Below, piece by piece: positions 1 through 23,676 of a DNA stretch of 24,000 nucleotides. The position numbers and the translations under genes were made by a program. Source of the stretch: Candidatus Omnitrophota bacterium (lineage in GTDB: Bacteria > Omnitrophota > Gorgyraeia > Velamenicoccales > Velamenicoccaceae); the NCBI GenBank assembly GCA_016235185.1, contig JACRLT010000042.1, positions 37,917 through 61,916 of the forward strand, given 5' to 3'. Numbering within the stretch: position 1 is the stretch's first letter; the number at the start of each line of letters is the position of its first letter. The notes beneath the pieces are model-generated. The model ran no database searches, was not told the DNA's origin, and saw only the letters and a program-made list of their open reading frames with translations.

Positions 1-960
1 CTCATGGTCCATATAGTGGACATTACTGCGGAAGACCTCTGTGATCCGTGTCGCAAGCGGACTATCCACGTAAATCGGGATAGGCGCAATAGAACCCTCT
101 TTTAAAAGCTCGCTTATAAAATACACAACTTCCTGTGTGCGTTCCAGGGCAAACGAAGGAATGATGATCTTCCCTTTTCTTGCCACTGTACGGTTGATCG
201 CCTCGCGCAGCTTACCTTTTGCATCAGAGATAGGCGTGTGCAGCCTCCCGCCGTAGGTCGACTCTAAGATAAGATAATCCAGGCCAGTCAAAATAGTGGG
301 ATTATTCAGCAAAGGCAGCTGTTTGCGGCCCAGATCCACTGCATAGCCTAAACGCAGGACCTTATGCTGCATCCTGATCTCAAGGAATACGACGCTCGCG
401 CCAAGGATATGGCCCGCATCGTAAAATGTCAAAGTCACATCATTGGTTATTTTGAATTTTTGTCCGTAGTGGAGCGGCCTAAAATGCGAGATCGAACGGA
501 TCGCTTCATGCTCTGTATACAACGGCCCGCGTATCATAACAGGTTCGGGCCGTCTTCGGCCCCTGGGCCTGCCCTTGGACCTCGAGGCTATTTTTCTTAA
601 ATAACGGAAGTCTTCGGCCTGCACACGGCCCGAATCAGCCAACATAAGTTTGCATAGGTCGCGAGTGGCAGAAGTAGTGTAGATCTTGGAATGTAGGCCG
701 TGCTTTAACAGCGTAGGTATGTTGCCGCAATGGTCTATATGGGCGTGCGATAAGATGAGGGCATTTATGCGCTGCGGTTGGTAAGCAAAAGTCGTATTGA
801 CTTCAAAAAACTCTTCACGCCTGCCGTAAAAAAGGCCCGCATCGATCAAGATCTTAGATTTCGGCGTAGTGAGCAAATGGCTTGAACCGGTTACCGTCCG
901 GACACCGCCCAAAAATTGAAGTTTGACTAAGCCGTGGTGGCTTATCTTATGTTTTTTCAT
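1..960 (-). CDS. MBL-fold beta-CASP (RNA-metabolising metallo-beta-lactamase) hydrolase; N-terminal 320 codons, C-terminus beyond the window edge
   Basis: Own translation of the minus strand from ATG 960-958: MKKHKISHHGLVKLQFLGGVRTVTGSSHLL...ALILSHAHIDHCGNIPTLL...LILESTYGGR...IIPSFALERTQEV...VHYMDHE. It carries the HxHxDH zinc motif and beta-CASP-like motifs. The frame is open to position 1. It is absent from the ORF track because no stop lies in the window. Confidence 0.85.
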   Translation of the reverse strand, partial: MKKHKISHHGLVKLQFLGGVRTVTGSSHLLTTPKSKILIDAGLFYGRREEFFEVNTTFAYQPQRINALILSHAHIDHCGNIPTLLKHGLHSKIYTTSATRDLCKLMLADSGRVQAEDFRYLRKIASRSKGRPRGRRRPEPVMIRGPLYTEHEAIRSISHFRPLHYGQKFKITNDVTLTFYDAGHILGASVVFLEIRMQHKVLRLGYAVDLGRKQLPLLNNPTILTGLDYLILESTYGGRLHTPISDAKGKLREAINRTVARKGKIIIPSFALERTQEVVYFISELLKEGSIAPIPIYVDSPLATRITEVFRSNVHYMDHE

Positions 961-1083
961 TAATTTTGACTTTTCGGATTTTATTTCCCTTCAAAATTAA
1001 CTCCGAAGCTTACCCCCACTGTTTCGTTTTGCTTTCGCAAAGCGAAACAAAACGGTGGGGGTGTTTAAGCAAGGAGTCTTACC
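961..1083 (-). repeat. Modular intercistronic element, family 1, copy 1 (left box, CCCCCAC hairpin, right box with 10-bp stem)
   Basis: Minus-strand reading: GGTAAGACTCCTTGCTTAAACA, then the 49-nt hairpin, then TAAGCTTCGGAGTTAATTTTGA..TCAAAATTA, then ATG. Positions 999-1076 are identical over 78 nt to 22151-22228. Stem 960-969/991-1000. Confidence 0.8.
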
Positions 1084-2461: not shown

Positions 2462-2572
2462 TGAGCACCTTAATTTTGCATATTTTAGGTGGTTTTTTCC
2501 TACAAAATTAACTCCGCAGCCTACCTCAAAATTATCGAAGAGAATTTTGAGGTGTCAAGGCAAGGAGCGACC
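2462..2572 (-). repeat. Modular intercistronic element, family 1, copy 2 (different central hairpin)
   Basis: Minus-strand reading: GGTCGCTCCTTGCCTTGACA, then CCTCAAAATT-loop-AATTTTGAGG, then TAGGCTGCGGAGTTAATTTTG..CAAAATTAAGGTGCTCA, then ATG. Stem 2470-2478/2503-2511. Central hairpin 2524-2552. Confidence 0.8.
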
Positions 2573-4457: not shown

Positions 4458-4882
4458 CAGGCGGCAGGTTGACTTTCGGGTTTACCGCCTTCGGGCTGCA
4501 ATTTTTTGTGGGTCCTAAGGGTTACCTGTATCATCTGGACCAGTTGGTCAAAGGTATAATTCTTGGCGAAAAACCCGGAGATGCCCAATTCCTTGGCGCG
4601 GGTGATCTTTTCGTCGTGGCCGTAGGCGGCTGTAACCATGATAATAGGCAATTCCTTATTAAATTCACGTATGTTCTTTAATGCCTCCAGGCCATCCATG
4701 ACAGGCATGTTGATATCCATGAACATTATATCGGGTGCGCCTGCTTTAACGCGCTCAACCGCCTCCTTGCCGTTACGGCAAGTAGCCACAGAGTACCCTC
4801 GAGATTTTAACCAAAAGGCAATGGGTTCTATAAAATCATTTTCATCGTCTACCAACAAAACGCCGATCTCTTTATTCTCCAT
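4457..4882 (-). CDS. Single-domain response regulator (CheY-like receiver) with a short Pro/Gly-rich tail
   Basis: VLLVDDE...DIMFMDINMPVMDGLEAL...PIIMVTA...AKELGISGFFAKN. Confidence 0.9.
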   Translation of the reverse strand: MENKEIGVLLVDDENDFIEPIAFWLKSRGYSVATCRNGKEAVERVKAGAPDIMFMDINMPVMDGLEALKNIREFNKELPIIMVTAAYGHDEKITRAKELGISGFFAKNYTFDQLVQMIQVTLRTHKKLQPEGGKPESQPAA

Positions 4883-6982: not shown

Positions 6983-8089
6983 TCAAATCAGGCGGGAACA
7001 GATCTCATCTAAAACAACCATGCCAGATAGGGTCGCTTTCAAGCGAAGCTTCTCTTGGCTCAATAACCCGTGTTCAATAAGATCGTAAATAACCGCTTTC
7101 TTCTCTTTAGGCAATATGACTTCAAACCTTTGCTCCAGATCGGAGACATCCACTCCTTCGGCCAACCTTAGGCCTATGAGCAGTGTCTCCATAAAACGCT
7201 CTTCTTGCGTCAATTTCTCCTGGCCCTCCATAGCCCGGGGCTTTTCTTTCATCATATCAAGGTAGGTTTCTATCGTAGCACCATTCCAATATCTATGGCC
7301 GTTTAAGTGTGAGTGGGCTGCAACGCCCATGCCTATATAATTTCCGCCCCTCCAATAATTAATGTTATGCCTGCATGGATACCCCTGTTTGGCAAAATTG
7401 CTTACCTCGTAATGAAAAAAACCGTGACGCTCTAACGATTGCGAAACAAAAAGATACTCATCCCCCTGTTTTACATTAGTAGGCGGTTCTATGTTGCGAA
7501 GGTAAAATTGAGAACCTTCACAAATAGAGAGCGTATAAAGCGAGATGTGCTCGCTGCCAAAAGACGCAAGGCCAAAAACATCCTCTTCTATTTCTTTTCT
7601 CGTCTGGCCCGGCAAGGAATAGATAAGGTCCAGGTTAATATTTTTAAACCCTGCATCCCTTAAGGCCTCAAAAGAAGAAAGGGCCTGCGTTCTGGTGTGC
7701 GGCCTGCCCAAAAATTCCAAATACTTGTCATTAAGCGACTGTACCCCGAGGCTCATGCGGTTGGCTCCTGAATCAAAGATCGTTTTAGCCTTCTGTGCAT
7801 CAAACGTAGCAGGATTAGCCTCCATAGTTATTTCGGCTCCGTCTTCGATCACAAAATTAGACCGTATGATCTCAAATAGCGTTCTTATGTCAAGAACGCT
7901 TAAATACGTCGGCGTCCCGCCGCCTATATAGACAGTGCTGACACTTTGGCCTTTATAGCCTGAAGCCTCTTTATCCAAGGCATCCAGATACGGCCCTATC
8001 AGATCATCTTTTTTCTCAAACGAAGAGAACGAACAATAGAAACACTTGGACTGACAAAATGGGATGTGGATGTATAAGGAAGGGTTCAT
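6983..8089 (-). CDS. hemW: Radical SAM heme chaperone HemW (HemN-like, oxygen-independent coproporphyrinogen oxidase family)
   Basis: LYIHIPFCQSKCFYCSF radical-SAM CxxxCxxC motif, GGGTP, 368 aa. Confidence 0.9.
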   Translation of the reverse strand: MNPSLYIHIPFCQSKCFYCSFSSFEKKDDLIGPYLDALDKEASGYKGQSVSTVYIGGGTPTYLSVLDIRTLFEIIRSNFVIEDGAEITMEANPATFDAQKAKTIFDSGANRMSLGVQSLNDKYLEFLGRPHTRTQALSSFEALRDAGFKNINLDLIYSLPGQTRKEIEEDVFGLASFGSEHISLYTLSICEGSQFYLRNIEPPTNVKQGDEYLFVSQSLERHGFFHYEVSNFAKQGYPCRHNINYWRGGNYIGMGVAAHSHLNGHRYWNGATIETYLDMMKEKPRAMEGQEKLTQEERFMETLLIGLRLAEGVDVSDLEQRFEVILPKEKKAVIYDLIEHGLLSQEKLRLKATLSGMVVLDEICSRLI

Positions 8090-8120
8090 ACCGTGAAATA
8101 GACGCTAAGAATTAATTTAT

Positions 8121-8177
8121 CCCGCTTCGCAAAATGTGTTAAAATTCTCTACGATAATTTTAACACGCTTACGCGGG
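8121..8177. repeat. Hairpin module related to the central hairpin of family-1 copy 2, in inverted orientation
   Basis: 8138-8164 is GTTAAAATT-CTCTACGAT-AATTTTAAC. Its reverse complement differs from 2524-2552 by one loop base plus compensatory stem changes. It is flanked by CCCGC (8121-8125) and GCGGG (8173-8177). Confidence 0.6.
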
Positions 8178-8204
8178 ATTTCGCTGGAATAGGCATCAAT
8201 GTGC

Positions 8205-8591
8205 TCAAAATGATCTGAAATTCTTGACGTATTCGGCGAGAAACTGCTTTGTGCTTTGGTCGATCTCGGTAAATTCCAAGCCAACCCGATAAGTCGCTGA
8301 ATCACCCTGCGAAGAACAATATCGCACTATTCCTTTGGCATGGATCTTAACATCCCCCTCCTCTTTTGTAGGGAGGTCAAAAGCAATGTCCAATTCGGTA
8401 TTTCGCGGTAACATTACCTCGGAGATAAAACCAATACCACCCTCGCCCAGATCGACCAGGCAGACGGTTTCGCTGCTGCCCCCGAGCTTCATTTTTACTT
8501 CAGGAGGATGTTCAACAGAATAAAAGAGGTCTGTCTTTAAAAGCGCCCTTTCGGATTTACGCCTATCAACCCCCCAGAATGAATCGTCCAT
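8205..8591 (-). CDS. PilZ-domain protein (putative c-di-GMP receptor)
   Basis: RRKSER (RxxxR) and DLGEGGIGF (D/NxSxxG-like) motifs. 128 aa. Confidence 0.75.
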   Translation of the reverse strand: MDDSFWGVDRRKSERALLKTDLFYSVEHPPEVKMKLGGSSETVCLVDLGEGGIGFISEVMLPRNTELDIAFDLPTKEEGDVKIHAKGIVRYCSSQGDSATYRVGLEFTEIDQSTKQFLAEYVKNFRSF

Positions 8592-11540: not shown

Positions 11541-11576
11541 CCACCATCTTTTTCCGATACAGGAAAAAGATGGTGG
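11541..11576 (-). terminator. 15-bp perfect hairpin that includes the tmRNA 3' CCACCA (processing or termination hairpin)
   Basis: CCACCATCTTTTTCC (11541-11555), a 6-nt loop, then GGAAAAAGATGGTGG (11562-11576). No U-tract follows on the minus strand. Confidence 0.45.
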
Positions 11577-12043
11577 AGGTGGGCGGAATCGAACCGCCGT
11601 CCTTAAATTATCCGATAGAAAGCACTACATGTTTAGCCTATTTATTAATTTAACCTGTTTTACTCCAGTAGGCAGGATTAAAACAGGCTGTCCTTTTTTA
11701 GATTTAATCCCGACAACTAAAGGAATGTTGTTGGAACGAGCCTGTTTCCGGCACCTATACGCTTCCAGGCAAAACGCATAAGTGGTCCCGCTTAATGAGC
11801 GAGAGCTAACGCTGGAGTTGCAGGAGCAGCTGTCAATCCAGGATTGGTAGCCTCAGTGGAGAACAAACTTACTGTTTCCTCTGATGTAGCCGCCATACTT
11901 GGACCATTGGCAATTGCTTCAGCTTCTCTGATCAGACTTTCGTCTTTTGCGTTTATATTGTGCAAGGTGTTTAAAGAGGCCTCCTCGCAACCTCTACATG
12001 CTCCATCTACCAGTAAAACCTAAGTCGAGCCCTTTTCACCCCC
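11571..12043 (-). ncRNA. ssrA: tmRNA (SsrA), 473 nt
   Basis: The 5' end GGGGGTGAAAAGGGCTCGACTTAGG pairs with the 3' end ...GGCGGTTCGATTCCGCCCACCTCCACCA. The acceptor stem has a G3:U pair and a T-arm GGTTCGATTCC. PK1: AGAGG/CCTCT plus TGCGAGG/CCTTGCA. The resume region AAAC-GCA AAA GAC GAA parallels E. coli GCA AAC GAC GAA. Confidence 0.93.
11792..11950 (-). other. tmRNA tag-encoding reading frame (52 codons plus TAA)
   Basis: From GCA at 11950: AKDESLIREAEAIANGPSMAATSEETVSLFSTEATNPGLTAAPATPALALAH*. Translated by hand; no in-frame stop before 11794-11792. Confidence 0.55.
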
Positions 12044-13006: not shown

Positions 13007-16000
13007 CTAAACTCCCGGCCTTGCTTTACCGAAAGATTTAAAAATCTCTTCCATCTGGTCATAATCCAATTCTTCTTTTTCAAGAAGTGACTGCGCGAAT
13101 TTATCAAGCAGCGCTCTTTCCTGCGAAAGTATCTTTTCAACGTCGCTGCGGCATTCGCCGATGATCTTTTGCACGTCGCTATCAAGTTTTGCCTTCATCT
13201 CTTCAGACATCCTAGATTCAGCCGGTTGGTTGCCGAAAGCAAGGGCTGAAAAGTTTCCGCTCATCCCGCTTTCACCCATGCCCCACTCATAAACCATGCT
13301 ATAGGCGACCCGCATGACATTTTTTAGATCTGCGGATACGCCTGCGGTTGTATAGCCATATTTTGTTTTTTCTGCCACATACCCTCCGAGAGATGTCTTG
13401 ATATTTGCCAGCGCCTGTTTTTGGTCAAATGCCAGGGTCTCCTCTGTGGCATGAGACCAGCTTACCCCTGCTGAGCTCTTGCGCGGAATAATACTCACCT
13501 TGAAAACATCTCTTTTGGGCTGAAGCAAATAAGTCATAATAGCGTGCCCTGCCTCATGATACGCCGTGGCTTCTTTTTCCTGACGCGACAACTGGACACG
13601 CTGCCGTAATCCCAGCTCAATACGCTCCATTGCCTCGCTTATTTCATCCATTGTAATAAAGTCTTTTTTATTCCTCACCACAAGTATGGCTGCCTCGTGG
13701 ACCATATTGGCTATATCCGCCGGAGAATAACCAACACTGATACGCGCAAGTTTATCTGTACGCACTGAATTTTTATCATAGCTGACATTGGAAAGGTAAT
13801 ATTCAAAAAGCTTTTGCCTATCTTCCAGATTGGGAAGATAGATATATAATTTACGGTCAAAACGGCCCGGGCGCAAAAGAGCCGGGTCAAAATGATCTTC
13901 GGGCATATTAGTCGCGCCAACCACCACAATATTAAACTCCGCATCTTTTTCCTTAAGGCCGTCCATCTCTACTAGAAATTGATTGAGGGTCTGATTATGC
14001 TCTCTCTGCCCTCCGAGACCCATATCAACGGCGCGCCTGGCTCCAAGTGCGTCAATTTCATCAATAAATAAAATACATCCGCCGTGAATCTGGGCCAATT
14101 CTTTAGCTTCTATGAACATACGCCGTATGCGCATAGCGCCCACTCCAACAAACATCTCAACAAATTCTGAGCCGGATTTATACAAAAACGGCAGATTAAA
14201 CTCTGTGGCCATAGCGCTGCCCAGATATGTCTTGCCGCAGCCAGGAGGCCCGAACATGAGAAGTCCCTTGATAATTTTTCCTCCGACTCTCTGCAAGCGA
14301 GCCCTGTCCTTTATCAATTCCACTACCTCACGCGCTTCCTGCTTTGTTTCATCCATGCCTATAACATCATCCCAAGTAACGCCTGTTTTTATGATGCGGG
14401 CTTCCTGGACCATTACAGCTTCTCTTGCAGGCCGCTCTTTATCGGATTCCTTAAAAATCTGCTCAATCTCATCATAATTAAGCTCTTCTTTTTCCTCTAA
14501 TTCCTTCGCCAGCTTTTCAACTATTTTCCACTCCTGTCTTAAAAGAGTATTGATCTGCCGATAACAGTGCTCGATCATCTCCTGGGCATCTTTGTCCAAA
14601 TCCTCCTGAATTAGATTAGACACGCCTGCACCTTCAAAATTGCCTATGTGTCCTGACTTACCCATCCCCCAGCGCCATACCATATTATGAGCAAGCTCCG
14701 TCGCTTTACGCAAGTCGCTTTCAGCCACATTTGAGGTCACGCCGAATTTTATCTTTTCAGAGACAAAACCTGCCAGTGATATTTTTATATCCGCCTGGAC
14801 CAGGTTTTTATCGCGGCTTAAAACCTCCTCTTTTTCAGTCAAAAGAGAAGATACAATATCTTTACCCCTGGGAATGATAGTTGCTTTAAAAACATCTTTG
14901 GTCGGAACCAACAGATATGTAACCAGGATATGGCCTGCCTCATAAAAAGAAAGCCGCGCCTTCTCTTCCTGCGTCATTCTAAAATGGCGCTTTATACCTA
15001 GCGATATCCTTTCGCGGGCCTCTTTCATTTCTTTCATAGTAATAGCAGGTTTTTTATTGCGCTGCGTTATAACCAGTGCCTCCTGAACCATATTCGCTAT
15101 TTCCGCAGGAGAAGCGCCTACGGTAATACGCGCCAAGCTCTCAATATCTGCTGAGTTTTTATCATAAGAAGTCTTTCCCAAATAATACTCAAAAAGTTTT
15201 TTGCGGTCATACGCATCAGGCAAGTCTACCACTATCTTGCGGTCAAACCTACCGGGGCGAAGAAAGGCCGGATCGAGAAATTTTTCTGACATGTTGGTAG
15301 CGCCAAATACTACTATATTATCGGCCTTACTTCTTAAGCCGTCCATTTCAACAAGCAATTGGTTTAAGGTGGTGTTGTGTTCTGTCGTGCCGCCAAAACC
15401 TTCAAACGTTCCCCTTGACATACCCATCGCATCAATCTCATCGATAAAGATAACGCACCCGCCTTCCAGGGCAGCTAATTCTCTGGCTTGCTTAAACAAC
15501 TTGCGTACCCGGCTGGCGCCGACTCCGACGAACACCTCTACAAATTCAGAACCCGACAACGATAAAAACGGAAGCTTGGTCTCGGTGGCTATAGCTTTGA
15601 CGAGATAAGTCTTACCGCAACCCGGAGGGCCCAATAATAATACTCCTTTTAATATTTTTGAGCCGCTTTTTTCAAGCTCTACCCTGTCTGTTATAAGCTG
15701 CACAACCTCTCTTGCCTCTTTCTTCGACTCCTCCATCCCGATGACATCTTCCCAGCGCACACCGATATCTGCGCCTCTGATATAAGACTTGCCTATTCGA
15801 GTAAAAGCCCTGGCTGCATCGCCGCGCATAATAAACACCCACATCAATCCAAAAATTACCGATTGAATAACCGCAAAATAAAGCTGGAACGGAAACCCCC
15901 CTATCGTACGCTGCTTAGTCACAAAATCTACACTGGACCACTCCGAAATTCCACGATAAAGAAGGATACCCACCGAGATAACCATAACTAAAGACACAAC

Positions 16001-16060
16001 AACCATAATTATTTTGATCCAGTGCAATTTGAAAAATATTTTCATTCTTTTGTTATCCAT
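13007..16060 (-). CDS. Tandem-duplicated FtsH-like AAA+ metalloprotease: 2 TM helices, then [AAA+ and M41-like] twice
   Basis: Walker A GPPGCGKT is at aa 144-151 and 604-611. Walker B IFIDEID is at aa 204-210 and 664-670. Pore loops are FVEVFVGVGA and FVEMFVGVGA. The SRH LRPGRFDRK occurs twice. The protease motif is YEAGH at aa 373-377 (nt 14930-14944) and HEAGH at aa 835-839 (nt 13544-13558). AAGGAG RBS. Confidence 0.9.
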   Translation of the reverse strand: MDNKRMKIFFKLHWIKIIMVVVSLVMVISVGILLYRGISEWSSVDFVTKQRTIGGFPFQLYFAVIQSVIFGLMWVFIMRGDAARAFTRIGKSYIRGADIGVRWEDVIGMEESKKEAREVVQLITDRVELEKSGSKILKGVLLLGPPGCGKTYLVKAIATETKLPFLSLSGSEFVEVFVGVGASRVRKLFKQARELAALEGGCVIFIDEIDAMGMSRGTFEGFGGTTEHNTTLNQLLVEMDGLRSKADNIVVFGATNMSEKFLDPAFLRPGRFDRKIVVDLPDAYDRKKLFEYYLGKTSYDKNSADIESLARITVGASPAEIANMVQEALVITQRNKKPAITMKEMKEARERISLGIKRHFRMTQEEKARLSFYEAGHILVTYLLVPTKDVFKATIIPRGKDIVSSLLTEKEEVLSRDKNLVQADIKISLAGFVSEKIKFGVTSNVAESDLRKATELAHNMVWRWGMGKSGHIGNFEGAGVSNLIQEDLDKDAQEMIEHCYRQINTLLRQEWKIVEKLAKELEEKEELNYDEIEQIFKESDKERPAREAVMVQEARIIKTGVTWDDVIGMDETKQEAREVVELIKDRARLQRVGGKIIKGLLMFGPPGCGKTYLGSAMATEFNLPFLYKSGSEFVEMFVGVGAMRIRRMFIEAKELAQIHGGCILFIDEIDALGARRAVDMGLGGQREHNQTLNQFLVEMDGLKEKDAEFNIVVVGATNMPEDHFDPALLRPGRFDRKLYIYLPNLEDRQKLFEYYLSNVSYDKNSVRTDKLARISVGYSPADIANMVHEAAILVVRNKKDFITMDEISEAMERIELGLRQRVQLSRQEKEATAYHEAGHAIMTYLLQPKRDVFKVSIIPRKSSAGVSWSHATEETLAFDQKQALANIKTSLGGYVAEKTKYGYTTAGVSADLKNVMRVAYSMVYEWGMGESGMSGNFSALAFGNQPAESRMSEEMKAKLDSDVQKIIGECRSDVEKILSQERALLDKFAQSLLEKEELDYDQMEEIFKSFGKARPGV

Positions 16061-16075: not shown

Positions 16076-16528
16076 TCACTTGTTCTTAAGCATTCTCTTC
16101 ATTGCCAAATTCGCTTCTCGGCGTCTTATATCTTGGCGCCTATCATATGTTTTTTTACCCTTGGCTAAAGATAGGGCCACCTTAACAAAACCTCTCGCGT
16201 TAAAATACATCTTCATCGGCACAAGCGTAAAACCACGCTGAGAAACCTTGCCTATTAATTTTTTTATCTGTGCGTGATGCAAGAGAAGACGCCTGGGCCT
16301 TGTGGCCTCTTCCTTAAAATAGCTGGCCTTTTCGTATGGGGTTATATGGCAGTTATGTAGATATATTTCGTTGCCTTCAATGCGGGCAAAGGCATCGTCG
16401 ATATTTGCCTTGTGGTCCCTAAGCGACTTGACTTCACTGCCCTTTAGCTCAAGACCGCACTCCAGGGTCTCTAAAACCTCATAATCCCTGAACAATTTGC
16501 GGTTTGTGGCTATGACCTTTTCGTCCAT
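16076..16528 (-). CDS. smpB: SsrA-binding protein SmpB
   Basis: IATNRKLFRDYEVLETLECGLELKGSEVKSLR...LHNCHITPYE...RPRRLLLH..EI.KL...KGFTLVPMKMYF..G.VKV.L.LAKGKK.YDRR. Confidence 0.95.
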   Translation of the reverse strand: MDEKVIATNRKLFRDYEVLETLECGLELKGSEVKSLRDHKANIDDAFARIEGNEIYLHNCHITPYEKASYFKEEATRPRRLLLHHAQIKKLIGKVSQRGFTLVPMKMYFNARGFVKVALSLAKGKKTYDRRQDIRRREANLAMKRMLKNK

Positions 16529-20609: not shown

Positions 20610-20699
20610 CTTTTTAATGCGCAGACACTTTATGGAACATTAGTGAACATAAAGTGTAGGCCTCGCCTGCCTCCGGCAGGCAGGGCAGTCTGCGAATTA

Positions 20700-20748
20700 C
20701 CCCCACTGATTCGTTTTGCATTCGCAAAGCGAATCAAAACGGTGGGGG
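20700..20748 (+). repeat. 49-nt CCCCCAC...GTGGGGG three-helix hairpin module, variant copy
   Basis: It differs from the copies at 1013-1061 and 22165-22213 at 3 positions. Two of them (module positions 21 and 35) are a compensatory T:A to A:T swap. Confidence 0.75.
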
Positions 20749-20774
20749 TAAATTCCGCCCAATAACTTACGTCG

Positions 20775-20870
20775 TAAATGGAGCCCGGTGTTCCTTTGGC
20801 GGAATACTTGAAGCGGCCGCAACCATACGCAGCCTAAAGGGCACGGTTTTAGGCCACGAAAGTATAAGTG
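20775..20870 (+). repeat. Leader repeat, family 2, copy Y (short form)
   Basis: TAAATGGAGCCCGG...TTTGGCGGAATACTTGAAGCGGCCGCAACCATACGCAGCCTAAAGGGCACGGTTTTAGGCCACGAAAGTATAAGTGG, directly upstream of the DedA/YqaA-like gene. It aligns with the reverse complement of 6817-6950. Confidence 0.7.
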
Positions 20871-20894: not shown

Positions 20895-21524
20895 ATGAAG
20901 AAAATTATGAAGACGCTAATCTACATACTCAAGGCGCCGCTACGATGGTTTAGGAATATGTACAAGTGGACCATCCATTGGTCCAAGAAAAAAGAAGCTC
21001 CGTATGCGCTCTTCTCAATAGCCTTCGCCGAAAGCTCCTTCTTCCCTGTCCCGCCGGATGTGCTTTTGATCGCGATGGTATTGGCGCAAAGAAAAAAGTG
21101 GTTTGTCTACGCGGGTATTTGCACACTCGGCTCTGTATGCGGGGCTTTACTTGGGTATTTTATCGGGTGGGGGCTTTATGAGACTGTGGGTAAATTAATA
21201 GTATCTACCTATCACCTTGAGTCTGTGGTCGAGCTTATCGGCCAAAAATACCAGGCCAACGCGTTCCTTACGGTATTTACCGCAGCATTCACACCTATCC
21301 CCTACAAAGCGATCACTATCACCGCAGGGCTTTTTAAGATATCACTCGGTGTGCTTGTAGCGGCCTCGATCATCGGCCGCGCCGGAAGGTTTTTCCTTGT
21401 GGCTGTTTCTTTGAGGATATTCGGCAAGAAAATAGAAGATTCGATAGAAAAATACTTCGATATCTTCTCTCTTGTCCTGGTAGGATTATTGATACTTGGT
21501 ATTCTCGCCTTAAAATATCTATAG
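20895..21524 (+). CDS. VTT-domain (DedA/YqaA-family) inner-membrane protein
   Basis: YALFSIAFAESSFFPVPPDVLLIAMVL...GSVCGALLGYFIGWG. ATG 20895 is preferred over the tracked GTG at 20868; ATG 20907 is also possible. It is the only plus-strand gene. Confidence 0.85.
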   Translation: MKKIMKTLIYILKAPLRWFRNMYKWTIHWSKKKEAPYALFSIAFAESSFFPVPPDVLLIAMVLAQRKKWFVYAGICTLGSVCGALLGYFIGWGLYETVGKLIVSTYHLESVVELIGQKYQANAFLTVFTAAFTPIPYKAITITAGLFKISLGVLVAASIIGRAGRFFLVAVSLRIFGKKIEDSIEKYFDIFSLVLVGLLILGILALKYL

Positions 21525-21525
21525 G

Positions 21526-21675
21526 CTATTTCTTTTTAATCTCGTCTAATATCCTGTCGAGCTTAGTCTCGATACGCAGCAATATCTCCATCTTCTTCTG
21601 TTCCATCTTCGCCTGGCTATCCTGCAATTCCTTGGCTGCCTGGGCCATCTTCGCCATATCCGGTAAATTAAACAT
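21526..21675 (-). CDS. 49-aa predicted coiled-coil small protein (not in the ORF track)
   Basis: AAGGAG lies 7 nt upstream of ATG 21675. MFNLPDMAKMAQAAKELQDSQAKMEQKKMEILLRIETKLDRILDEIKKK*. It is preceded by family-1 copy 3. Confidence 0.45.
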   Translation of the reverse strand: MFNLPDMAKMAQAAKELQDSQAKMEQKKMEILLRIETKLDRILDEIKKK

Positions 21676-21805
21676 CAATTTACTCTCCTTAATTTTGCAT
21701 TTTCTGGGTATTTTTCTTCACAAAATTAACTCCGAAGCCAGCGATGGAATTTCGTGCCGGAGAACCCTGGCACGAAATTACGAGCGCTTTGGCAAGGAGT
21801 CTACC
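21676..21805 (-). repeat. Modular intercistronic element, family 1, copy 3 (third type of central hairpin)
   Basis: Minus-strand reading: GGTAGACTCCTTGCCAAAGCG.., then AATTTCGTGCC-loop-GGCACGAAATT (21748-21779), then ..CGCTGGCTTCGGAGTTAATTTTG..CAAAATTAAGGAGAGTAAATTG, then ATG. Stem 21689-21697/21721-21729. Confidence 0.8.
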
Positions 21806-22098
21806 TAGAATTTTTTCCCGTGCCTGTATGGACGGCTCTTGTTTTTTTCGGCTTTCTTCTTCAGCGCTGCCTCAAGGTCTATTCCGCGGGCGCCGCAATA
21901 ATCAAAGATCCTGATACAGCAATCCGCGAGCTCCTCGGCAACATCATCTTTGCCTAAGTCATTGCGCATAGCCTCTAACGCCTCCGATAACTCCGAATGC
22001 ATGAGTGCGATGAGCTCGCCATCGGAGCGTTCAAAATCCCACCACCCTTTTTCCTTGGCGGTCTTGTAACATAATTCGATCCAACTATTAATAGTCAT
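21805..22098 (-). CDS. MazG-like nucleotide pyrophosphohydrolase family protein (small all-alpha NTP-PPase)
   Basis: 97 aa. LMHSELSEALEA...AEELADCCIRIFD is an E/D-rich metal-binding helix pair. The C-terminal NKSRPYRHGKKF is typical of the MazG-like family. Confidence 0.75.
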   Translation of the reverse strand: MTINSWIELCYKTAKEKGWWDFERSDGELIALMHSELSEALEAMRNDLGKDDVAEELADCCIRIFDYCGARGIDLEAALKKKAEKNKSRPYRHGKKF

Positions 22099-22233
22099 TG
22101 TTTTGCTCCTTGATTTTGCCTATATTTAGGTATTTTTACTTTACAAAATCAACTCCGAAGCTTACCCCCACTGTTTCGTTTTGCTTTCGCAAAGCGAAAC
22201 AAAACGGTGGGGGTGTTTAAGCAAGGAGCTAAC
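22099..22233 (-). repeat. Modular intercistronic element, family 1, copy 4
   Basis: Minus-strand reading: GTTAGCTCCTTGCTTAAACA, then the 49-nt hairpin, then TAAGCTTCGGAGTTGATTTTG..CAAAATCAAGGAGCAAAACA, then ATG. The 5' end overlaps the trpF stop (22229-22231). Stem 22110-22118/22144-22152 covaries with the other copies. Confidence 0.8.
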
Positions 22234-22894
22234 TTTTTACATTTTTGATGAATTTTTTGATCAATTGATGGTCTTTCTTGCCGGGCGCCTTCTCCACACC
22301 GCTTGATACATCAACGGCAAAAGGCCCTATCCTTCTGACCAGCTCGCTCGCGTTATCCGGCGTCAAACCGCCTGAAACAAAAAAAGGAGTTTTTGTCTTC
22401 TTTAAAGGCTTTAAAATATCCCAGTCAAACGCTTGGCCAGTGCCGCCAAAGGCGCCTTTCTGATAAGTGTCAAAAAGAAAATAATCGGCATTATACGACT
22501 TTAAAGTTTCCGCGCTGACTTTGTCTTTTATTCTCAACGCCTTGATAACAGAATAGCCCTTAAAAGCAGCTAAATAACCCGGGGGTTCATCACCGTGGAA
22601 CTGCAGAAGGTCAAGGCCGCAGATATCGGCGATCTTTTTAACCCTTTCCTCTTTCTCATTAACAAAAACGCCGGCTTTTAAAATACCCTTTGGCAGTCTT
22701 TTAATGATAGCGCGCGCTTTCAAAGGCGTAATGTAGCGCAAGCTCCTCTTATAAAAAATAAAACCTATGAAGAAGGCGCCGTTAGAAACAGAAAAAGCGG
22801 CATCCGGGTAATTCGTGATGCCGCATATTTTGATCCTGCACCCAGTCCCAGAATGCGGGACGGGCAGGACTCCGCTTTGCTTTGCCTTAGTCAT
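22229..22894 (-). CDS. trpF: Phosphoribosylanthranilate isomerase
   Basis: RIKICGIT...FIGFIF...SLRYI...LLQFHGDE...FLFD...GGTGQAFDW...PFFVSGGL.P.N. ATGA overlap with trpC. Confidence 0.9.
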   Translation of the reverse strand: MTKAKQSGVLPVPHSGTGCRIKICGITNYPDAAFSVSNGAFFIGFIFYKRSLRYITPLKARAIIKRLPKGILKAGVFVNEKEERVKKIADICGLDLLQFHGDEPPGYLAAFKGYSVIKALRIKDKVSAETLKSYNADYFLFDTYQKGAFGGTGQAFDWDILKPLKKTKTPFFVSGGLTPDNASELVRRIGPFAVDVSSGVEKAPGKKDHQLIKKFIKNVKS

Positions 22895-23676
22895 GACTTC
22901 AGGCGTTTTACAAATTCCCGTGTCAAAGCTTGGATATCTTTGGCGCGCATAAGCGCTTCACCCACCAACACACCTTTGACTCCGGACTTCTTTACCGCAT
23001 CGAGGTCAGAAACGGATTTAATCCCGCTTTCACAGACCACGATCTTATCCTCGGGTATTTTTTCCATAAGCCTTGGCAAAATATCGAGATCAATGGTGAA
23101 ATCTTTTAAGTTTCGCGTGTTGATGCCTATAATGGACGCTCCGCAATCAAGCGCCATTTTAAGCTCATCTTCGCTGTGCGCTTCCACAAGCGCATCGAGT
23201 TGCACCTCTTTAGCGGCTTTCAACAGGTCTTTTAAACCCTTTTCTTTTAAAATAGAAACTATCAGAAGGACCGCATCCGCATGGTGTACCTTTGATTCAT
23301 AGATATGGTATTCGTCTATCAGAAAATCCTTTCGAAGTATCGGCAGCTGCACTGCTAAAGCAACTGCGTTCAAATGAGACAGGCTGCCTTTGAAGAACTT
23401 ATCTTCTGTCAGGATAGATAAACAGCCGGCTCCCCCTGCCTCATAGGCAAGGGCTATATCCCTGGCATCAAAATTCTCCCTGATGATACCAGCGGATGGC
23501 GATGCCTTTTTGATCTCTGCAATGAGGTGGACACCATCCTCTTCTATTTTTCTGCGGAATTTTGCAGAGGGCAAAGACTTATCCAGCGCTTTGACAAATT
23601 CCAAAAAAGGAGTTACGGACTTCTGTTTCTTTAATTGTTCTTTTTTATACGCTACGATCTCGTCTAAAATATTCAT
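22891..23676 (-). CDS. trpC: Indole-3-glycerol-phosphate synthase
   Basis: LIAEIKKASPS.G.I...A.AYE.GGA..LS.LT....F.GS...L......LP.LRKDF..D.YHIYE......DA.LLI...L...........LD.LVE.H...E......GA..IGINTRNL..F..D. Confidence 0.93.
   Translation of the reverse strand: MNILDEIVAYKKEQLKKQKSVTPFLEFVKALDKSLPSAKFRRKIEEDGVHLIAEIKKASPSAGIIRENFDARDIALAYEAGGAGCLSILTEDKFFKGSLSHLNAVALAVQLPILRKDFLIDEYHIYESKVHHADAVLLIVSILKEKGLKDLLKAAKEVQLDALVEAHSEDELKMALDCGASIIGINTRNLKDFTIDLDILPRLMEKIPEDKIVVCESGIKSVSDLDAVKKSGVKGVLVGEALMRAKDIQALTREFVKRLKS

Follow-up and report, generated by a model that had tools for sequence, protein, structure and literature searches.

The 24,000-nucleotide stretch of Omnitrophota contig JACRLT010000042.1 analyzed here, hereafter the window, carries almost all of its genes on the minus strand. 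Between several of these co-directional genes lie copies of a hairpin-forming repeat, four of them full and a fifth degenerate, all on the minus strand. The repeat is a unit of about 110-135 nt made of two modules: P1, a long irregular hairpin, and P2, a second hairpin that starts directly after the GGAG closing P1. P1 was scored with a covariance model, R1, which replaced a loose regular expression for P1 variants whose matches were mostly noise. We find that the repeat represents a family of two-hairpin modular elements in Omnitrophota that is previously undescribed. The original prediction centered on the region downstream of trpF, where the minus strand reads trpF, copy 4, the GGAG-CAAAACA-ATG of a MazG-like gene, copy 3, and the GGAG and ATG of a 49-aa open reading frame (ORF). 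The genes and modules of this region and the other copies in the window are as follows.

22891-23676, minus strand: trpC
22229-22894, minus strand: trpF (Pfam match to PRAI, 5.6e-45), stop codon TAG at 22231-22229
22229-22110, minus strand: copy 4 as a whole, between trpF and the MazG-like gene
22153-22229, minus strand: P1 of copy 4 (R1 54.1 bits, E=6e-14), with the 5' box CTCCTTGC at 22228-22221, the 49-nt inner hairpin at 22213-22165 and GCTTCGGAG at 22161-22153
22110-22152, minus strand: P2 of copy 4, with TTGATTTTG at 22152-22144, a loop of 25 nt and CAAAATCAA at 22118-22110
22096-22109, minus strand: gene-owned stretch 3' of copy 4 and outside the element, with the Shine-Dalgarno GGAG, the spacer CAAAACA and the ATG of the MazG-like gene
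21805-22098, minus strand: MazG-like gene, 97 aa (PF03819, 24.2 bits against a cutoff of 22), stop codon TAG at 21807-21805
21800-21689, minus strand: copy 3 as a whole, between the MazG-like gene and the 49-aa ORF
21730-21800, minus strand: P1 of copy 3 (R1 58.1 bits, E=4e-15), with the box CTCCTTGC at 21799-21792, its own inner hairpin and GCTTCGGAG
21689-21729, minus strand: P2 of copy 3, with TTAATTTTG, a loop and CAAAATTAA (21697-21689), followed by GGAG at 21688-21685
21526-21675, minus strand: 49-aa ORF, ATG at 21675
960-1077, minus strand: P1 and P2 of copy 1 (R1 56.5 bits), between a redoxin gene and an MBL/beta-CASP gene (ATG at 960-958)
2470-2568, minus strand: P1 and P2 of copy 2 (R1 66.7 bits), between a PNPOx and a PAS gene, followed by the native GGTG at 2469-2466 and an ATG at 2461
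8114-8184, minus strand: fifth P1 module, degenerate, of the UCCC/GGGA type (R1 18.3 bits, E=0.0027, filters off)
20699-20747, no strand assigned: solo 49-nt inner hairpin in the divergent region between an SNF transporter gene and a VTT gene

The elements had been described as filling the whole intercistronic space, and our reading of the junctions bears this out. The trpF stop codon directly adjoins the CTCCTTGC of copy 4, and its G forms part of the outermost P1 pair. The stop codon of the MazG-like gene is followed by five nucleotides, GTAGA, and then by the CTCCTTGC of copy 3. At the other end, P2 of copies 2, 3 and 4 is followed by GGAG or GGTG and, 4-9 nt on, by an ATG. In copy 1 the second stem is not followed by GGAG; its CAAAATTAA (968-960) ends in the A of the ATG, so the stem abuts the start codon without an AAGGAG, as had been noted. 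The degenerate module lies between a PilZ gene (8205-8591) and a radical-SAM/HemN gene (6983-8089), has neither a P2 nor an adjacent Shine-Dalgarno sequence, and looks like a decaying relic.

All four full copies share the same predicted fold. P1 is closed by a 5-bp helix of (A/G)CUCC with GGAG(U), inside which an invariant internal loop places UU opposite U(G/U)C (UU/UKC). Further inward, a 4-bp helix called P1b (GCUU/AAGC or a compensated variant) is followed by AANC, bulged on the 5' side, and finally by a hairpin that varies and is exchangeable. P2 reads UURAUUUUG ... CAAAAUYAA; its base, UUAAU/AUUAA, carries a variable top ranging from a 3-nt loop to long inserted hairpins. Across 59 diverse P1 modules, the P1 and P1b positions pair in 99.4% of cells, compared with 28-65% in slid controls, and double-sided changes occur in five of the nine pairs. 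The closing helix alternates among CUCC/GGAG, UCCC/GGGA and CCCC/GGGG, while P1b occurs as GCUU/AAGC, GCCU/AGGC, GCGU/ACGC and GCCA/UGGC, the last in copy 3 of the window. The inner hairpin opens with a G-C pair in 29 sequences and an A-U pair in 27.

To test P2, we took as its 3' arm the 9 nt preceding the first downstream ORF's Shine-Dalgarno sequence, a choice in which complementarity played no part, and compared it with a 5' arm of the 9 nt after GGAG. This definition replaced energy heuristics, which had mis-assigned long spans as P2. The arms match perfectly, at 9 of 9 positions, in 43 of 75 copies, and mean complementarity is 7.37, against 6.39 (sd 0.11) with shuffled partners. Covarying alternatives are AT/GC/CG, TA/CG and GC/CG. 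The compensatory pair TTGATTTTG/CAAAATCAA versus TTAATTTTG/CAAAATTAA, pointed out earlier for the window, is present and proves to be one case of this general rule; the G-C variant at the third pair of copy 4 P2 is also found in other genomes. As judged by covariation, the P1 and P2 helices are real.

How far does the family extend? R1 gave 133 matches at E<1e-3 on Omnitrophota loci (0.62 Mb) and a single marginal match on unrelated loci (0.59 Mb) that contained an 18-mer of the P1/P2 junction by chance. Searched against one genome per species, the 18-mer itself returned mostly chance matches; those accompanied by the rest of the element were all from Omnitrophota, among them Ca. Velamenicoccus archaeovorus LiM, CG1_02_44_16 and UBA6210. 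Two metagenome-assembled genomes labelled Planctomycetia also match the 18-mer, and by eye their pheS-pheT region is close to the Velamenicoccus locus. A P1-anchored pattern yielded 90 metagenome loci, and related copies in other assemblies number in the hundreds. No match to the element was found in the phage, plasmid and IMG/VR collections searched. Rfam 15 reported only a tmRNA in the whole window and no match to the element at gathering threshold; a permissive scan of 21500-22400 produced just miRNA-hairpin matches on the 49-nt palindrome, far below threshold. The literature searched on Omnitrophota or Velamenicoccus makes no mention of such repeats. Members of the family precede pheT, tRNA genes and other housekeeping genes (names other than those of the tRNAs were read from N-terminal translations). 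The proposal that accessory-looking genes each have a copy of their own does not hold as something specific to such genes.

The history of the window copies can be read from the corresponding junctions of relatives. Three of them, with TrpF identities of 83%, 69% and 64%, share the gene order aroA-trpG-trpD-trpC-trpF-97 aa-49 aa, after which comes a VTT gene on the opposite strand. The distances between the flanking genes are as follows.

trpF / 97-aa gene: overlap of 11 nt, or gaps of 3 and 26 nt, in relatives; 130 nt in the window (copy 4)
Redoxin / MBL gene: gap of 6 nt or overlap of 4 nt in relatives; 132 nt in the window (copy 1)
PNPOx / PAS gene: gaps of 49, 13 and 12 nt in relatives; 140 nt in the window (copy 2)
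97-aa / 49-aa gene: gaps of 165, 53 and 105 nt, without a P1 module, in relatives; 126 nt in the window (copy 3)

At all four window junctions the relatives are without a family copy, and three of the junctions are tight, from overlapping to 49 nt apart. R1 had no match at these junctions on the relatives' loci, and the two loci of the closest relative were free of any P1 module. The converse case also occurs: in CG1_02_44_16 (loci L189 and L190) an element separates aroA from trpG, genes that lie 2 nt apart in loci L186 and L187. Since the relatives' junctions lack them, by parsimony we infer that the window copies are recent, lineage-specific insertions. The original prediction saw the two small genes, MazG-like and 49-aa, as additions behind a core operon; this is contradicted by the gene order conserved in three relatives with no element between trpF and the 97-aa gene. 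Because the order is the same down to 64% TrpF identity, the small genes are old members of the locus.

Comparison with empty sites also delimits the element. The element-free locus L186 reads ...GGAGCAAAACAATGACC, the same as the sequence 3' of copy 4, with Shine-Dalgarno sequence, spacer and start, GGAGCAAAACAATG, unchanged. In element-free L191, from the closest relative, the copy 2 site reads ...AAAGGTGCTTAATGCG, where the window has CG[element]GGTGCTCAATGCG; GGTGCT(T/C)AATG is common to both. Since they are present in both empty sites, Shine-Dalgarno sequence, spacer and start are a property of the downstream genes. From these alignments we place the extent of the element from about CTCC to the final base of the P2 stem, and insertion took place after the stop codon of the upstream gene and before the native Shine-Dalgarno sequence or start codon of the downstream one. 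The suggestion that the element supplies expression signals to the genes behind it fails: the Shine-Dalgarno sequences are native in L186 and L191, copies 3 and 4 contain no sigma-70-like site, and the promoter-like P2 loop is replaced by a 3-nt loop in many members.

Insertion has left marks on the neighboring genes. At copy 1, the native ...cccgTTAGggagttATG, seen empty in L191, has been replaced, the redoxin tail is changed, and no Shine-Dalgarno sequence is left before the ATG. The C-terminal tail and stop codon of TrpF are unlike those of all relatives, a change that we attribute to the insertion of copy 4.

Other palindromes occupy the same junctions in relatives: GCCTGCCTGCCGGCAGGCAGG in the trpF 3' end of L186, and AATGAGACAAATC...GATTTGTCTCATT in L190. 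These belong to other palindromic repeat families, at 4670-4705 and 5270-5305 of L190 and 4612-4635 of L186, and extend into trpF at its 3' end. In these genomes, stop/start junctions thus appear to be contested by several families of hairpin repeats. In the window itself, the region 20660-20800 holds a GC palindrome, ctgcctgccggaggcagg, similar to the one within the trpF 3' end of L186, and a AATAACTTACG motif typical of another P2 type.

The modules of the element have also moved independently of one another. Positions 999-1076 and 22151-22228 are exactly identical over 78 nt, as had been reported, and the bases next to them differ at both ends. This repeat accounts for all exact 25-mer repeats in the window, which has no other exact repeat of at least 25 nt. 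Shorter boxes are likewise enriched: CGGAGTTRATTTTG occurs four times, always on the minus strand, against 0.5 expected from shuffled sequence, and CTCCTTGC five times, four of them inside elements, against 0.98. The P1 module of copy 1 is identical to that of copy 4, and their P2 modules match at just 32 of 43 positions, in line with the earlier suggestion of module copying or exchange rather than vertical drift. The same suggestion gains from the 49-nt inner hairpin, which stands alone at 20699-20747 and recurs within P2 of loci L154 and L161. The solo hairpin differs from that of copies 1 and 4 at three positions, two of which form a compensatory pair, and the inner hairpin of copies 1 and 4 is the P1 insert in about 10 metagenome copies. 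The 78-nt identity represents a shared, recently copied P1 joined to P2 modules of different history, which points to module shuffling or gene conversion.

Could the identity instead come from a chimeric join or repeat collapse in the assembly? The sequence does come from a metagenome-assembled genome, and an independent k-mer assembly breaks in the repeat. Yet the flanks on both sides of each copy are syntenic neighbors in several other genomes, hundreds of related copies exist in other assemblies, and the independent Logan assembly (L194, 3 samples) has an identical trpF/element junction, breaking 30 nt into the repeat. The syntenic flanks and the independently reproduced junction, for which the original prediction had proposed a read-level check, exclude an artefact for practical purposes.

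Across the family, inner hairpins and P2 tops have been swapped between otherwise conserved boxes. Tandem units without ORFs occur at loci L091, L101 and L127, arrays of P2-linker-P1-P2 at pheS-pheT loci, and in composites a unit of the UCCC/GGGA type is fused to one of the CUCC/GGAG type. Inverted pairs, antisense to flanking genes, are confined to one lineage (Ga0210019); elsewhere the orientation is direct. Judged from comparisons of sequence, the elements demonstrably behave as mobile or mosaic DNA.

Placement is regular. Of 94 copies, 55 have a Shine-Dalgarno-like 4-mer directly behind P2 and a start codon 3-11 nt beyond it, and 12 have the start codon itself closing the P2 stem. Three copies adjoin the first base of tRNA genes starting with GGAG or GGAC. 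The downstream gene is on the same strand for 103 copies as against about 18, several of which are short-gene artefacts; approximately 85-90% of copies are co-oriented with genes. The antisense copies lack GGAG.

We favor the reading, at a probability of roughly 0.6, that the elements are REP/BIME/MITE-like modular hairpin repeats (repetitive extragenic palindromes, bacterial interspersed mosaic elements and miniature inverted-repeat transposable elements) that inserted recently 5' of Shine-Dalgarno or start sites and whose modules have been reshuffled. The units would be non-autonomous and propagated in trans by an enzyme that uses the conserved loop and bulge to recognize the folded single strand. 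Why are they so regularly found next to Shine-Dalgarno or start sites? Such regularity suggests either targeting or a survival filter: insertion may be directed to the 5' side of GGNG, or only those insertions may survive that keep the spacing from Shine-Dalgarno sequence to start codon. The elements would be co-transcribed with their operons, with secondary effects, if any, on how stable the mRNAs are, how they are processed or how their translation is coupled.

Several observations weigh against this reading. No Y1 transposase was found by tblastn, a search of only 1.3 Mb with IS200 and IS608 TnpA queries. A target-site duplication was sought at the copy 2, copy 4 and aroA/trpG junctions, and none was convincing. 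Nor were long terminal inverted repeats seen; the ends are complementary only through CTCCTT/AAGGAG, and the AAGGAG comes from the native gene. The core remains conserved between lineages with TrpF identities of only about 50-64%, and the copies are highly regular in position and orientation; these two features are also compatible with a host function. Loci were retrieved with element-derived patterns, which biases counts and box conservation upward. Finally, at the copy 2 junction the closest relative, L191, has about 40 extra nt with a duplicated AGGTGC, and loss of the element at this junction, rather than gain, is conceivable. The duplicated AGGTGC lies at 2895-2925 of L191 (TTAAGGTGCGAAAGGTGCTT), exactly at the copy 2 site, and could be an excision footprint or a pre-existing duplication.

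Among known systems, the element works like interspersed repeats of the REP/BIME, MIRU, BOX or ERIC type and has the defining features of none. With the REP/BIME repeats of enterobacteria and the REPIN-RAYT system of Pseudomonas it shares the character of a short, high-copy, hairpin-forming extragenic repeat, built as a mosaic of palindromic units and linkers. Also common to them are insertion polymorphism between close relatives, concerted lineage-specific types, inverted pairs (here in one lineage) and persistence across a large clade. The imperfect palindrome does occur in many extragenic copies, 133 by R1 in a retrieval-biased sample of Omnitrophota loci and five in the window. The Omnitrophota element differs in having no GTAG head, in its much larger size, 110-135 nt rather than 20-40-nt units in inverted pairs, and in its two distinct modules; moreover, its copies are predominantly co-oriented with genes and lie 5' of Shine-Dalgarno or start sites, not after 3' ends, and no cognate RAYT gene came to light in the 1.3 Mb searched for Y1 transposases. 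Terminal inverted repeats combined with a target-site duplication, as in MITEs, were absent at the junctions examined.

The mycobacterial interspersed repetitive units (MIRUs) of Mycobacterium tuberculosis, reportedly described by Supply et al. in 1997, are alike in being intercistronic within operons, in gene orientation, often tandem, and overlapping flanking stop and start signals. However, MIRUs are direct tandem units of 40-100 bp with small ORFs for translational coupling, whereas the Omnitrophota element carries no ORF, has two covarying hairpins as its defining feature and does not resemble MIRUs in sequence. BOX of Streptococcus pneumoniae, ERIC/IRU and Correia (nemis) elements are similarly modular or folded, are transcribed in mRNAs near start and stop codons, can alter the expression or processing of neighboring genes, and vary in module number and content. 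Their sequences and host phyla are different, and none is reported to lie immediately 5' of the Shine-Dalgarno sequence as a rule, unlike the Omnitrophota element. Correia and ERIC also have long terminal inverted repeats, and Correia a TA duplication, which the present element does not.

The palindrome-associated transposable elements (PATEs) derived from IS200/IS605 have subterminal hairpins with conserved bulges and strand-specific behavior. They insert beside a fixed tetranucleotide without target duplication, as copies 2 and 4 do 5' of GGTG and GGAG. In contrast to PATEs, no TnpA gene or related autonomous element was found for the Omnitrophota repeat in the loci searched, and its target rule is not absolute, given the copies that end at ATG and the antisense copies without GGAG. 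We regard the resemblance as a lead rather than as membership.

The strongest competitor, to which we nevertheless give distinctly less credence, is a host-selected, cis-acting RNA in operon mRNAs. A conserved protein or RNase would read the invariant UU/UKC loop and AANC bulge and control processing, stability or translational coupling, and duplication would be mere spread. The conservation of the core, the covariation of the helices across the phylum and the co-orientation with the downstream gene all suit such a function, as does the way P2 directly adjoins the Shine-Dalgarno sequence or start codon. Stems that end in AUG occur repeatedly, at genes unrelated to one another (window copy 1, pheT loci, L104, L160, L177 and L181), and many of the downstream genes look highly expressed, their names, tRNAs apart, again being those read from N-terminal translations. 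Where no Shine-Dalgarno sequence is left, folding of P2 would place the internal GGAG beside the AUG. A parallel would be phage T4, whose genes 38 and 25 have split ribosome-binding sites.

A cis-acting RNA fits less well with the behavior of the junctions: orthologous junctions in close relatives work without the element, copies are not kept at orthologous positions, and in one lineage modules lie antisense to genes and in inverted pairs. Nor do the strand measures favor it. The antisense strand folds more stably in 96 of 122 distinct modules, and G.U pairs stand to A.C mismatches at 25:25 in the sense but 51:7 in the antisense direction, although these measures are confounded by constant loops and by kinship among copies. 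The folding-energy and G.U/A.C strand tests gave no positive evidence for selection on an mRNA fold, and neither the orthologous position nor the large excess of G.U over A.C on the transcribed strand that marks riboswitch-like leaders was observed. The predicted unpaired probability of the Shine-Dalgarno sequence in the element context is only 0.40. Two narrower ideas were considered and set aside. A self-cleaving ribozyme or riboswitch had no Rfam match. An anti-Shine-Dalgarno role, in which the CUCC box would mimic 16S rRNA and either act as a switch by pairing with the Shine-Dalgarno sequence or shield it, is weakened by the covariation of P1 to UCCC/GGGA and CCCC/GGGG, and the same predicted accessibility is neither clearly high nor clearly low.

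A more speculative and rather unlikely proposal is that the family represents something new. It might be a single-strand hairpin element whose CUCC box, normally paired to the internal GGAG, pairs with the GGAG of Shine-Dalgarno sites or tRNA 5' ends and directs insertion 5' of them. In addition or instead, the family might have been domesticated as an intercistronic RNA module, with a dedicated Omnitrophota protein reading the invariant UU/UKC loop and AANC bulge to cut or insulate operon mRNAs. If true, either version would describe a repeat class specifically colonizing translation-initiation regions.

Improbable, by comparison, is a terminator-plus-promoter cassette, in which the inner hairpin would end the upstream transcript and TTGATT or TTAATT, at 17-19 nt from a TAnAAT-like hexamer in the P2 loop, would start an mRNA with a short leader. 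A -10-like hexamer does stand in fixed register 3 nt before CAAAAT (TATAAT in L002, TACAAT in L031, TAAAAT in window copy 2), and the presence of the element 5' of tRNA genes is compatible with a promoter. But many P2 modules have a 3-nt loop, for instance UUAAUUCGCCggaGGCGAAUUAA, or long insertions between the putative -35 and -10, so that the spacing of 16-19 nt expected of a sigma-70 promoter is destroyed in many members. Moreover, the two halves covary as a helix, and scans of copies 3 and 4 revealed no sigma-70-like site and no terminator-like T-run after the hairpins. A P2-loop promoter had looked attractive in the first genome matches and was dropped after the 3-nt loops and long insertions of the metagenome copies and the promoter scan.

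Recombination sites of the integron attC type or of other cassettes, which would make the MazG-like and 49-aa genes mobile, are very improbable: each small gene does have its own folded imperfect palindrome and elements do form arrays, but relatives without elements keep the same genes in the same order, elements also flank housekeeping and tRNA genes, no GTTRRRY/RYYYAAC core sites can be read from the sequence, and the window genes include no integrase.

The Omnitrophota, uncultured bacteria of ultra-small size, some of them predatory, have compact genomes. The repeat family separates genes that otherwise overlap, rewrites the C-terminal tails of upstream proteins and at times removes a Shine-Dalgarno sequence; because of these effects it is a visible force in Omnitrophota genome evolution. 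It also leads to contig breaks and mis-called gene ends in metagenome-assembled genomes. Its structural core, which Rfam does not contain, is well defined and backed by covariation, and its strict placement by ribosome-binding sites makes it a tractable system for studying target choice and the balance between toleration and exploitation in operon mRNAs.

The remaining observations concern genes of the window. The 49-aa ORF (MFNLPDMAKMAQAAKELQ...), which had no match in a Pfam scan, has kept its sequence and its place in relatives with TrpF identities as low as 64%, and this conservation makes it likely to encode a real small protein. The 286-aa ORF at 1093-1953 on the minus strand has an over-extended 5' end; redoxin homologues are 171-185 aa long, which places the true start further downstream. 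The tmRNA gene at 11571-12043 on the minus strand (Rfam, 170 bits) has an insertion of about 100 nt relative to the model, after the resume-codon region. ARAGORN gives its tag peptide as APATPALALAH, and smpB is close by at 16076-16528 on the minus strand. An FtsH-like protein of 1017 aa, encoded at 13007-16060 on the minus strand, has two AAA domains and two M41 peptidase matches. Within its gene, 13691-13780 and 15077-15166 are 73% identical, and it appears to be a tandemly duplicated FtsH.

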